Positions 6,878 through 12,729 of a stretch of 64,000 nt of DNA are shown in pieces. The notes under the pieces were generated by a model that saw nothing but the letters and a program-made list of their open reading frames with translations, searched no databases and was not told the DNA's origin. Position 1 is the stretch's first letter; each line of letters starts with the position of its first letter. The stretch spans positions 1-64,000 of the forward strand of contig JBJOKS010000004.1 in the NCBI GenBank assembly GCA_046045965.1, read 5' to 3'. This DNA comes from Cyanobacteriota bacterium (GTDB lineage: Bacteria > Cyanobacteriota > Cyanobacteriia > Cyanobacteriales > Nostocaceae). A program made the translations under genes and the position numbers.

Positions 6878-9034
6878 ATGGCAGAAGTTGATAAGTCAAT
6901 ATCCTTTGATGGACGGGATATTCGGCTGAAGGTTGGACTGTTAGCCCCCCAAGCTGGTGGGTCTGTGTTGATACAATCGGGGGATACAGCTGTTTTAGTC
7001 ACAGCTACGCGATCGCAAGCCAGAGAAGGCATTGATTTTCTTCCTCTTACGGTGGATTATGAAGAAAGATTGTATGCAGCGGGGAGAATCCCTGGTGGTA
7101 TCATGCGGCGGGAAGGTCGTCCACCAGAAAGAGCAATTCTTACCAGCCGCTTGATCGACCGTCCCCTTCGTCCTTTATTCCCTTCATGGTTACGGGATGA
7201 TTTGCAAGTAATTGCTTTCACCATGTCAATGGATGAGCAAGTACCGCCCGATGTGTTAGCTGTAACAGGTGCGTCTATTGCGACCCTAATTGCCCAAATT
7301 CCTTTTAATGGACCAATGGCAGCAGTGCGGGTAGGTTTAGTGGGTGATGATTTTATTATTAACCCCACCTATGCAGAAATTGAAGCAGGAGACTTGGATT
7401 TGATCGTAGCTGGTTCACCTGATGGTGTGATCATGGTGGAAGCGGGAGCAAATCAGTTACCAGAGCGCGATATTATCGAAGCGATTGATTTTGGCTACGA
7501 AGCAGTGCGGGATTTAATCCAAGCACAGCTGGATTTAGTAGAAGAACTCGGTCTAAAAATCGTCCAGGAAGCACCACCGGAAGTAGACCAAACACTAGAA
7601 AACTATATCCGCGATCGCGCAAGTGCTGAAATTAAAAACATCTTGGCGCAATTTGAGTTAACCAAAACTGAACGTGATACGGCTTTAGATGTAGTTAAAG
7701 ATGCTATCAAAGCTGAAATAGAAGCCCTACCCGAAGAAGACCCAATTCGATTAGCTGCTACAGCCAATAGCAAGGCACTTGGTAATACCTTTAAGGATAT
7801 CACCAAATATTTTATGCGCCGTCAAATCGTTGAAGACAACGTGCGCGTTGACGGTCGCAAACTAGATGAAGTCCGGCCTGTTTCCTGTCAAGTAGATGTT
7901 TTACCTAAGCGGGTACATGGTAGCGGTTTATTTAACCGAGGACTAACCCAGGTTCTAAGCTGCTGCACTCTCGGCACACCAGGAGATGCCCAAAACCTCA
8001 ATGATGATTTACAAGTAGATCAACATAAGCGTTACCTGCATCATTACAATTTTCCTCCCTTCTCAGTCGGGGAAACTAAACCGATGCGTGCGCCAGGAAG
8101 ACGGGAAATAGGTCACGGGGCTTTGGCAGAAAGAGCGATTTTACCCGTACTACCACCAAAAGAACAATTTCCTTACGTAATTCGCGTAGTCTCGGAAGTT
8201 CTTTCTTCTAACGGTTCTACCTCAATGGGTTCAGTCTGCGGTTCTACCCTCGCCCTCATGGATGCTGGTGTACCCATTACCAAACCCGTTAGCGGTGCTG
8301 CAATGGGCTTGATTAAGGAAGGAGACGAAGTGCGTGTTCTCACTGATATTCAAGGTATTGAAGACTTTTTAGGTGACATGGACTTCAAAGTTGCCGGTAC
8401 TGACACTGGGATCACAGCTTTACAAATGGATATGAAAATATCCGGGTTGTCTATAGACGTAATTAAACAAGCTGTTGACCAAGCTAAAGCTGCCCGGTTG
8501 CACATTCTGGACAAAATGCTCCAGACTATCGACACCCCCAGACAGGAAACTTCAGCCTTTGCCCCACGCCTGTTGACGATCAAGATTGATCCCGACATGA
8601 TTGGTTTAGTCATTGGACCCGGAGGCAAGACTATTAAGGGTATCACTGAAGAAACTGGTGCGAAAATTGACATCGAAGACGATGGTACTGTCACCATTTC
8701 CGCTGTTGATGAAGGCAGGGCGAAAAGAGCTAGGAACATTGTCCAAGGCATGACTCGCAAGCTGCATGAAGGTGATGTTTACGTTGGTCGTGTGACACGG
8801 ATTATACCAATTGGTGCATTTGTGGAATTTCTGCCCGGAAAAGAAGGCATGATTCACATTTCTCAACTCGCTGACTATCGTGTTGGTAAAGTTGAAGATG
8901 AAGTAGCAGTCGGTGATGAAGTGATTGTCAAAGTGCGCGAAATTGACAATAAGGGAAGAATTAACCTGACACGCTTGGGTATACACCCAGATCAAGCTGC
9001 TGCTGCGCGGGAAGCTGCGGCTACAAATCGTTAA
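6878..9034 (+). CDS. pnp: Polyribonucleotide nucleotidyltransferase (PNPase)
   Basis: [37 protein letters not shown] motifs plus KH and S1 domains. Confidence 0.98.
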
Positions 9035-9257
9035 TAACGATTAAGGATTTTAGATTTTGGATTAGAGATAAATCCCAATTCTAAAATCCGCGATGCCTTA
9101 TTTTACAGTGGGCATCGCTGTACGATTTTTTAATTATTATGAATAGTGAAATGATAAAAAGCCGAACGACAGAAGTTGCGGCTACACTAATACATAAGTT
9201 AGTATCATTATGAGTACGAGCAAGTACACAAACGATTTTATTGAGAATTTATAAGAT

Positions 9258-11750
9258 ATGCAAAATGAGGCAATACTAAAACTAAAGCCGCGTCCTCTCC
9301 GCTTAGTTTATTTAGCAAATACAACAACAGACCTAAAAAATGCCGTGACACTTTACACGCATTTATGGGGTGGGTTCTCAAATGCTATCTTTCCAGTACC
9401 TGATGATCCTGATAAACTTATTCTCTTGCAGTACGCCTTACAGTCAATTAATCCTGATTATATTTTCTTGCCAGAACAAGACCTTCCAGAAAATGTCACT
9501 GAAATTTTAGATCAGTTTCCAAGTCGTTACTTAACACTTCCATCCGACCGAATTGAAAACATAGCTAATCTTAATGATTATCTTCTTGGTCTTCCATTGG
9601 AGACAGTGAATGGTGGTAAAATTGGAGAATTTCCACACATTTTTAGGGTAATAAATTCTATATACAAAAATTCCTTATCTGACACTAATATTTGTTTAAT
9701 TTCAGATAATTCTATATTTGAACATGAGATATTTTTGCAGTTTGGTAAACCATCGAATCAATATCAAGAATACCTAAAAAACCATCTAAATGCTCTTTCA
9801 ATTACCATTGATTCTATTGAAGGTTTGCTCAAGACAAGCTTACTAACAGCAACAAGAATATTCACAAACTCACTCTCTATGACGAAAATGGAGATTGTAA
9901 ATACACAATCTTCAGGTGGCTGGTCAGTTCGAGATGATGAAAAAGTTTGCAATTTATTCCTTTATGAATCTAATGATATTAATATCGCAGCTATTTTTTG
10001 GAACTACCGCCGTTTAGATATAGGTTATATTAATAAGTTATGTTTGCCTAAAAAAGACTTCCTGCAAAACTTAGAAAATTGCATTTCAATTTTGTCTAAT
10101 TTTTTTCTCTCATTGCAGGAATTGATAATTTATGTTAATTTATCCAATGATGAAGCGATAAATTTAGCAAACCAAATTCATAATATTTTTAATAAATTTG
10201 ATAGAAATATTTTTGTAAGAGTTTTTTATAATAATTCCGGTTTTGATTTTAAGCCAGGTAACGTTTACTCTAGCAAACCAGTTATTACAACACGAGAAAT
10301 TTCATCATTAGATAAATCCATACGCTTTAGTCCTATCATACCCTCTGGACACGAAAATTCAGATTATCTTTTTGGGTATGATGCAGAAATTGAGTTTTCC
10401 TCTGGTAAATCATTTTCTGCTCCTTTTACACAAACTTCTGCTGTACTCCTATCTAATCACATACAACAAATTAAATATTCAGAAAATTCTCAAGACCCTC
10501 TATTAAAAGATTGGCAAAAGCGGAAAACACAACCTGTAAGACCTGCTGAAAAGGGTGTTACGGGGTTAGTTTACTCTAACGCAGAATGCCGTATATATTT
10601 ACCTGAAAGCGAAGAAATTATTGCAAGATGGTTAAAAAGTAAAGGTTTCATTTTTAAATTAAATGATCATACTCGGTATGCTAAAGGTTTTATTAAGCGT
10701 TGTGGAGGTTTTGATAAAACTAGAGATTTAATTATGTCAGGTGGAGCGAAAATATTTAGGGCTTTTGGTACTAGTGAATCCTCGGAAATCAATAAAGAAG
10801 ATGGAAATAAATTCAAGCATTCACATAAATCTGAACAAAGTGGATTGAAATATTCAGAAATAAAAGGACGTTTAGAACGAGAATTAAATCTGATCCGGAA
10901 AGATGCAAAGAATACGAAAGATGCAAAGAATATAGTAGAGCAAAATCTTCCGGCATTATTGGAAGCAGGGTTATTATACCGAGGATATGCCCTAAAATGC
11001 CCACATTGTGGGTTAAAAGACTGGTATAAATTGGAAAAAACTAATGAATTTGTTGAATGCAATGGTTGTGCAGAAAATTTCCAGTTAGGTTGTAAAGAAA
11101 ATTTTCAGTTTGACAATTTGGATAAGTTAGAATTTGCATATAAACCTAATGAATTAGCAGCCCGTTTTCTAAAAACTGGTGGAGAGGCTGTACTTTCAAC
11201 AGAAGCTTTTTTATCCTGGCTTGCTTCTTCTGGACATATTCAACTTGGAGGAGACATTTCACGCTTAGATGAAAAGCAGTCCTTCGCAGAAATTGATTTA
11301 TTTATCCTTGTTAAAAATGTTTTAATACTTGCTGAATGTAAGTCTTGGCGTTTAATAGATGAATCAAAGGCAAACGATATAATCAAGCATCTTGAAAAAG
11401 TAATTGAAACAGCAGTCCTTGTAAGCGCCAAAGTAGTTGTTTTAGGTGTTGTGACTACATCAGTTACCTGTGACTTACATTCCCTTGTGAGCGATGTGGC
11501 ACAAAATGCAACCGAAAAAGGAATCGGTGTACATCTACTGCTCAATGATACGTTTTATCTAATGGGTCAAAAAGAGAACGCAGTAACAGAACAATGGAAA
11601 CTCAATGTGTGGGATCTTATAGTTCCAGACAAGGACTTGCCTCATTATCAAGTTGTATCTGTAGGAGAACCTGTCCGAGAATATCGTTGGAATGAGGGAG
11701 ATCAACTGGTAAATAGAGACTTACTGGAAAGCTGGAAGCAAGAGTTTTAA
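9258..11750 (+). CDS. Uncharacterised 830-aa protein with C-terminal zinc ribbon and putative PD-(D/E)xK nuclease domain
   Basis: Long ATG-initiated ORF; CPHC...CNGC; EIDLFILVKNVLILAECKS. Confidence 0.7.
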   Translation: MQNEAILKLKPRPLRLVYLANTTTDLKNAVTLYTHLWGGFSNAIFPVPDDPDKLILLQYALQSINPDYIFLPEQDLPENVTEILDQFPSRYLTLPSDRIENIANLNDYLLGLPLETVNGGKIGEFPHIFRVINSIYKNSLSDTNICLISDNSIFEHEIFLQFGKPSNQYQEYLKNHLNALSITIDSIEGLLKTSLLTATRIFTNSLSMTKMEIVNTQSSGGWSVRDDEKVCNLFLYESNDINIAAIFWNYRRLDIGYINKLCLPKKDFLQNLENCISILSNFFLSLQELIIYVNLSNDEAINLANQIHNIFNKFDRNIFVRVFYNNSGFDFKPGNVYSSKPVITTREISSLDKSIRFSPIIPSGHENSDYLFGYDAEIEFSSGKSFSAPFTQTSAVLLSNHIQQIKYSENSQDPLLKDWQKRKTQPVRPAEKGVTGLVYSNAECRIYLPESEEIIARWLKSKGFIFKLNDHTRYAKGFIKRCGGFDKTRDLIMSGGAKIFRAFGTSESSEINKEDGNKFKHSHKSEQSGLKYSEIKGRLERELNLIRKDAKNTKDAKNIVEQNLPALLEAGLLYRGYALKCPHCGLKDWYKLEKTNEFVECNGCAENFQLGCKENFQFDNLDKLEFAYKPNELAARFLKTGGEAVLSTEAFLSWLASSGHIQLGGDISRLDEKQSFAEIDLFILVKNVLILAECKSWRLIDESKANDIIKHLEKVIETAVLVSAKVVVLGVVTTSVTCDLHSLVSDVAQNATEKGIGVHLLLNDTFYLMGQKENAVTEQWKLNVWDLIVPDKDLPHYQVVSVGEPVREYRWNEGDQLVNRDLLESWKQEF

Positions 11751-11891
11751 AGGTTTATATGTTCGTGTAGCTGCTGCAATTTCATTCATCCGGCTACCCT
11801 TTACCAATTTGTCAATTTCAGAGATTTTTGGTACATAAAGATTAAGTAACCTACATGGTTTACTTTTATCCCATACTTGACACAAAGCATA

Positions 11892-12155
11892 GTGAGTGCT
11901 AAACGTCTACCAGAAACCACCGCCAATGTCAGAATCACCCGCCAATCTTGGCAACATGGCTTTCTTGAAGGTGATGTCAGCGCCGGCGATTTTGAATGGC
12001 ATTTTGAATGGCATTTCCGTCGAGGAGAACTGACTGTCAAGCCTTCCCAGGGTCGCGCTTTAATTAAAGAACCTCTCGGCCGCTTTTTAGAAAAACAAGA
12101 TTATCAACTAGAACCTGGGGGAGATTATGCCTTTACTATTCGCGCAGAACTGTAA
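11892..12155 (+). CDS. Conserved cyanobacterial protein (DUF3146 family)
   Basis: MSAKRLPETTA...LEPGGDYAFTIRAEL; typical neighbour of ruvX/ntcA; GTG start at 11892. Confidence 0.8.
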   Translation: MSAKRLPETTANVRITRQSWQHGFLEGDVSAGDFEWHFEWHFRRGELTVKPSQGRALIKEPLGRFLEKQDYQLEPGGDYAFTIRAEL

Positions 12156-12597: not shown

Positions 12598-12688
12598 AGG
12601 GAATAGGGAACTCTTAACAGGGAACCGGGAATAGGTAATGGGTAATGGGTAATTGTTGATAGTTAATTGGGAAACATAAAATTTATTA

Positions 12689-12720
12689 CCCAGTCCCCAG
12701 TCCCCAGTCCCCAGTCCCCA
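12689..12720. repeat. STRR heptamer array (CCCCAGT)n
   Basis: Tandem CCCCAGT units; GGGAATA/GGGTAAT arrays just upstream. Confidence 0.9.
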
Positions 12721-12729
12721 ATCACCTTT

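Follow-up and report, generated by a model that had tools for sequence, protein, structure and literature searches.

What kind of protein is encoded by a long reading frame wedged between core genes of a cyanobacterial chromosome, and does it protect its host? We examined a 64,000-nucleotide stretch of DNA from a member of the Nostocaceae (GenBank assembly GCA_046045965.1, contig JBJOKS010000004.1, positions 1–64,000; hereafter the window), in which an open reading frame (ORF) of 830 amino acids (aa) is located, just as the initial annotation had placed it, between pnp (6878–9034) and DUF3146 (11877–12155). That annotation had proposed an orphan protein with a zinc ribbon and a PD-(D/E)xK nuclease, acquired horizontally and acting alone in defence. 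Our analysis indicates that some role in defence is probable. Among specific readings we favour, with our confidence evenly balanced, a mobile stand-alone cassette encoding a one-protein anti-phage or anti-plasmid sensor-nuclease, in which a predicted N-terminal ring replaces the CARF domain of Can2/Card1 enzymes (Table 1).

The motifs quoted previously were all found in the translation, namely RPLRLVYL (residues 12–19), LWGGFSNAIFP (36–46), CPHC (581–584), CNGC (601–604) and the catalytic segment EIDLFILVKNVLILAECKS (678–696), although the last of these is not terminal as had been described, since 134 residues come after it. In an alignment of 121 full-length family sequences, E693 and K695 are invariant, D680 is present in 120, and position 678 is D or E in 118, with D680, E693 and K695 sitting on predicted core strands 677–685 and 688–696. 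Likewise, cysteines 581, 584, 601 and 604 are invariant in all 121. When 74 sequences from a distant clade were checked, the catalytic D, E and K were present in every one, as were three of the four zinc-ribbon cysteines, with the remaining cysteine in 73. The catalytic residues are retained across sequences with only 16–30% identity. Together with matches of the predicted model to the restriction-enzyme core fold, this upholds the nuclease assignment, and metal-dependent cleavage by the domain is predicted.

Using a structure model of the nuclease half, we obtained Can2, Can1, Card1, VC1899 and Cdn1 as the best seven of 48,161 chains; the PDB entries compared (7bdv, 8bao, 8q3y, 6wxw, 9u49, 8z4i, 1xmx and 6sce) are CARF and PD-(D/E)xK ancillary nucleases. 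The matched span in 7bdv was residues 140–365, and the available text of PMC7969007 assigns residues 3–151 of that protein to CARF and 166–366 to the nuclease domain. Residues 450–790 are predicted to share the Can2/Card1 fold, including the helical motif that precedes the nuclease core and the extra four-helix, two-strand motif of the DUF1887 nuclease domain, and both groups have an E-x-K catalytic motif. One Can2 alignment (8q3y) began at model residue 87. The echo in sequence is weak, with PADLOC returning for the query three weak CARF_PDDEXK matches only, all within residues 658–728 (E 1e-5 at residues 658–717), and a PDB sequence search giving no match for the query and a best E of 0.061 (Can2) for the family profile. 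Unlike the two-domain Can2/Card1 proteins (~370–440 aa; 355–437 aa for the targets matched here), the protein is twice that length (700–920 aa across the family), has ~450 dissimilar N-terminal residues, carries its C4 zinc ribbon inside a predicted winged helix, and is encoded by genes unlinked to type III CRISPR in the neighbourhoods scanned (see below). It resembles Can2/Card1 in its effector half, while its size and lack of CRISPR linkage place it outside that group.

No other named system provided a home for the family. Searches of NCBIfam 20, Pfam and PHROGs gave nothing significant for the query, Pfam gave nothing significant for 26 further members, and PADLOC 2.0 and NCBIfam 20 gave no full-length profile match, with only a weak C-terminal match in two of 60 homologues. 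Shedu (SduA) and Upx, which are also single-gene PD-(D/E)xK defence proteins, differ in architecture, and their models matched neither the query nor the 60 homologues. In the Atlas the whole protein fell into unnamed clusters and residues 10–335 into no named cluster, while no viral structural match was obtained at E≤0.001. The lowest Foldseek E-values belonged to NRPS (non-ribosomal peptide synthetase) adenylation domains and protochlorophyllide reductase, which we rejected as diffuse alpha/beta matches (root-mean-square deviation 13–19, TM ≤0.21).

The N-terminal half gave no CARF profile match, and there was no CARF chain among the best 50 matches listed for the model of residues 1–450. For residues 10–320 the best three of 48,161 chains were Clostridioides difficile SlpA, Cwp8 and Cwp6, which bear a triple CWB2 module (Pfam PF04122; PDB 7acz, 5j6q and 5j72) and aligned over 222–227 residues spanning all three repeats, compared with 88–130 residues for the other 47 of the best 50 matches listed for the N-terminal model. 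A profile of repeat 1 also matched repeat 3 (E=0.0015). We tentatively suggest that the predicted three-repeat ring resembles the CWB2 triple module. The protein is nonetheless not a CWB2 wall protein: CWB2 modules belong to secreted wall proteins, whereas this one is fused to a nuclease and has no hydrophobic leader (maximum hydropathy over 19 residues at the N-terminus, 0.42), and PF04122 had no match at E≤1 in the query, nor any elsewhere in the genome.

Such a ring could serve a second-messenger effector, binding a cyclic oligonucleotide made by a type III CRISPR or CBASS system elsewhere in the genome and thereby activating the nuclease. Its nuclease half is closest to enzymes activated by cyclic oligoadenylate (cA), including a Cdn1 structure with cA3 (8z4i), a ligand of threefold symmetry would fit a ring that is itself pseudo-threefold, and a Cas10-type palm domain is present in 10 of 11 carrier genomes. 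However, this domain shows no enrichment over the background of 52 in 61 relatives (p=1.0), and the window genome, which is 92% complete, has no match to the Cas10/Cmr2 palm (PF22335) or to SMODS, the latter being found in two of the 11 carriers. Furthermore, residues 1–330 have a net charge of −11, and no Cas10, Csm, Cmr or CBASS cyclase model (E≤1e-10) was among the matches listed for 150 ORFs flanking family genes and 95 distal ORFs (see below). We regard signalling in trans as quite improbable.

Conserved residues in the ring region are R12, P13, W37, G38, G39, P46, P66, D67, G163, W248, N249, R251 and P264. The adjoining beta-rich domain has D375, P389, L398 and R428, displays the lowest nonsynonymous rate (dN) of the compared regions in five of six pairs, and gave no clear structural match when examined within larger models.

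Table 1. Features of the gene, its encoded protein and its site in the window
Feature	Residues	Window positions	Strand	Basis
Variable slot from pnp to DUF3146, holding the family gene here and empty or with other cargo in relatives		9146–11799		Comparison with relatives
Terminator-like hairpin 3' of pnp, directly upstream of the slot		9104–9122	+	Consensus match only; 1 found vs 0.2 expected in shuffles
Intact gene for an 830-aa protein lacking a signal peptide, from a family of 750–850 aa		9258–11750	+	ORF call; dN/dS 0.33–0.47 vs six relatives
Three alpha/beta repeats, predicted CWB2-like (Toprim-like) ring, putative sensor	10–330	9285–10247	+	Structure models
Beta-rich domain	331–448	10248–10601	+	Secondary structure of models
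Region aligning with entire nuclease half of Can2/Card1/Cdn1/VC1899	449–790	10602–11627	+	Structure match of model
Predicted winged helix, zinc ribbon inserted in wing	493–632	10734–11153	+	Placement from model's secondary structure
C4 zinc ribbon	C581, C584, C601, C604	10998–11069	+	Conservation
PD-(D/E)xK catalytic motif	E678-x-D680 ... E693-C-K695	11289–11342	+	Conservation

We assessed how widely the family is spread and how it is maintained. The term orphan holds only in that no named family in Pfam, PADLOC or NCBIfam covers the protein, as relatives do exist: 50 homologues share 32–88% identity with the query, the named ones cyanobacterial and nearly all annotated as hypothetical, and there are 482 cluster representatives at E≤0.001. 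A distant member (P0183) retrieves 720 further sequences, and its clade aligns with the near clade by profile over positions 9–676 (probability 99.7%). Named members also come from Planctomycetota, Poribacteria, Rokubacteria, Chloroflexi and Margulisiibacteriota, with plasmid-borne copies in Photobacterium, Rhodococcus, Embleya and Bradyrhizobium. No family member was found in viral contigs searched with the cyanobacterial alignment or in INPHARED phages searched with P0183. Among the fetched homologues we saw no swapping of the effector, nor, in a weaker check, among proteins of 1415–4040 aa. A literature search gave no description that could be linked to the family, although large tables of candidate defence genes in supplements could hold it unnamed. 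Ratios of nonsynonymous to synonymous substitution rates (dN/dS) against six close relatives were 0.33–0.47, so the gene is under selection yet fast-changing.

Within cyanobacterial genomes its presence is patchy rather than universal, at two of 61 relatives, 10 of 251 genomes of the taxonomic family and five of 301 of the phylum. Of the ten family carriers, the gene occupies the pnp–DUF3146 interval in five, lies close to a SUF cluster or HicAB-type genes in three and is located elsewhere in two. Three of these ten copies are split or remnant (G188 and G116 in two frames, G118 as remnants only; L028, L035/L038 and L036), and the gene therefore decays in some lineages. Such decay would be expected if the protein were a selfish or accessory nuclease, building up in variable slots and acting in addiction, element competition or DNA repair rather than defence, and so would the frequency of transposases, integrases, PIN toxins and Uma2 genes among its neighbours; the orphan Can2 relative VC1899 has likewise been proposed to be degenerate, in the available text of PMC7969007. 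Against this, no transposase, antitoxin or repeat accompanies the family gene, its catalytic residues persist at the low identities given above, and the P2-like accessory slots and restriction operons described below better match defence, while a prevalence of 2–4% makes housekeeping repair unlikely. Overall, we consider a non-defence role distinctly unlikely.

Comparison of 12 fetched regions showed the pnp–DUF3146 interval to be a slot for turnover of small cargo in this cyanobacterial family. It has no sizeable gene in four genomes (G018, G094, G144 and G025), with the flanks of G018 joined and only 48 bases between matches, and elsewhere it holds PIN-type toxin-antitoxin and pentapeptide genes (G200, G225 and G213), an IS200 transposase (G134) or genes of no assigned family (G108 and G090); in G001 and G002 different genes come after pnp. 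At the pnp site the identities of the gene (87–90%) and of pnp (84–90%) run roughly in parallel. In a copy from another genus at another site (G239), DNA identity is 91.7% for the gene versus 84% at its pnp end, and we attribute this greater likeness of the gene to lateral transfer. The horizontal acquisition proposed at the outset thus gains support from patchy presence, slot turnover and this contrast in identity. Composition adds less: GC content is 33.9%, compared with a genome value of 38.1%, which makes the ORF only mildly AT-rich (201 of 2068 same-sized tiles are as low or lower), and the HIP1 octamer GCGATCGC is indeed absent from the ORF but in an unremarkable way (1.3 copies expected; 625 of 2068 tiles also lack it). 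We rejected both as proof of foreign origin. Two other ORFs occupying the slot, L049:840–1817 (−; 325 aa) and L040:1942–2571 (−; 209 aa), have no Pfam match at E≤0.001 and are candidate defence genes, the former possibly Schlafen/AlbA-like, judged by eye.

The neighbourhoods of relatives were examined at 19 GTDB loci (16 titled cyanobacteria and three from one uncultured bin), where the family gene is alone and frequently beside Uma2 or toxin-antitoxin genes, and for the distant clade at 80 metagenome and five viral loci, from which two duplicates were dropped. At 68 loci we scanned against PADLOC (E≤1e-10) 150 of the 173 ORFs of ≥120 aa that were no more than two places from the gene, using as controls 95 of 134 ORFs five or more places away and 45 window ORFs. 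Matches were obtained for 30 of the 150 near ORFs (25 judged real and five spurious), seven of the 95 distal ORFs (five judged real) and seven of the 45 window ORFs (all generic superfamilies), giving a Fisher p of ~0.01 for near versus distal and 0.67 for raw near versus window, with loci that are not independent. Among the scanned ORFs a defence-type neighbour is present at 22 of the 68 loci, counting GapS1 (L135) and SIR2-nSTAND5 (L137), in keeping with the defence context that had been anticipated. Of the refuting outcomes named in the initial annotation, none that is open to computation was observed. In one prophage (L137:4748–10373) the family gene is located between the SIR2-nSTAND5 NTPase gene and the portal gene, with terminase genes nearby, and in two further viral loci it follows a tail-completion gene (L139) or precedes a baseplate V gene (L140); the available text of PMC9122126 and PMC13586616 describes P2 defence hotspots in the portal-adjacent region and, less often, at tail genes. 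The immediate neighbours of the window copy, by comparison, are housekeeping genes.

At another locus (L097) the family gene is flanked by hsdS and hsdM. The protein could also be an always-on, type IV-like restriction enzyme that supplements restriction-modification operons, with modified or foreign DNA read by the winged helix, the beta domain or the ring, which we judge unlikely. No partner gene recurs across the examined loci. A Leptolyngbya plasmid (L016:13–15097) carries, in order, genes for an SNF2 helicase, a 171-aa ORF, an Eco57I/MmeI-type methylase, the family protein, patatin, a HipA-like kinase and a HIRAN protein; we take its start to be DISARM-like, with an unusual continuation.

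Returning to the favoured sensor-nuclease, we suggest that the nuclease would be kept off in uninfected cells, because no methylase or antitoxin travels with the family gene. The ring and the adjoining beta domain may then directly bind an invader-derived cue, for which a phage protein or nucleic acid of abnormal structure would be the simplest candidates. This binding would gather or reshape the nuclease domains, probably as a dimer like that of Can2, while the winged helix and zinc ribbon hold on to the DNA. Low-specificity nicking or cutting might subsequently stall the invader or the cell, and so protect against phage or plasmid. A bolder version, possible but doubtful, is that a CWB2 wall-anchor fold has been co-opted for intracellular immunity, forming a new sensor class in place of CARF on a Can2-type nuclease and detecting an invader cue with threefold symmetry (a trimeric phage protein, for example, or a small molecule), in a widespread one-gene defence absent from current catalogues.

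Beyond DUF3146 the window continues with a RuvX-family gene, DUF3084 and an NtcA-like gene, which we take to be ntcA. Parts of the ORF are matched exactly by contigs from two metatranscriptome runs, although contigs cannot show transcription or its level. In both RNA runs a short repeat at ~12630–12725, between the RuvX-family gene and DUF3084, had very deep contig coverage with numerous loose ends and is probably a common cyanobacterial tandem repeat.

If our reading is true, a widespread single-gene immune nuclease would be added to the defence catalogue, and the Can2/Card1 nuclease half would be seen to function with non-CARF sensors outside CRISPR. Likewise, a first intracellular role would emerge for the CWB2 fold, which is known from structural anchoring in the cell wall. 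Homologues are already present in P2-like prophages.
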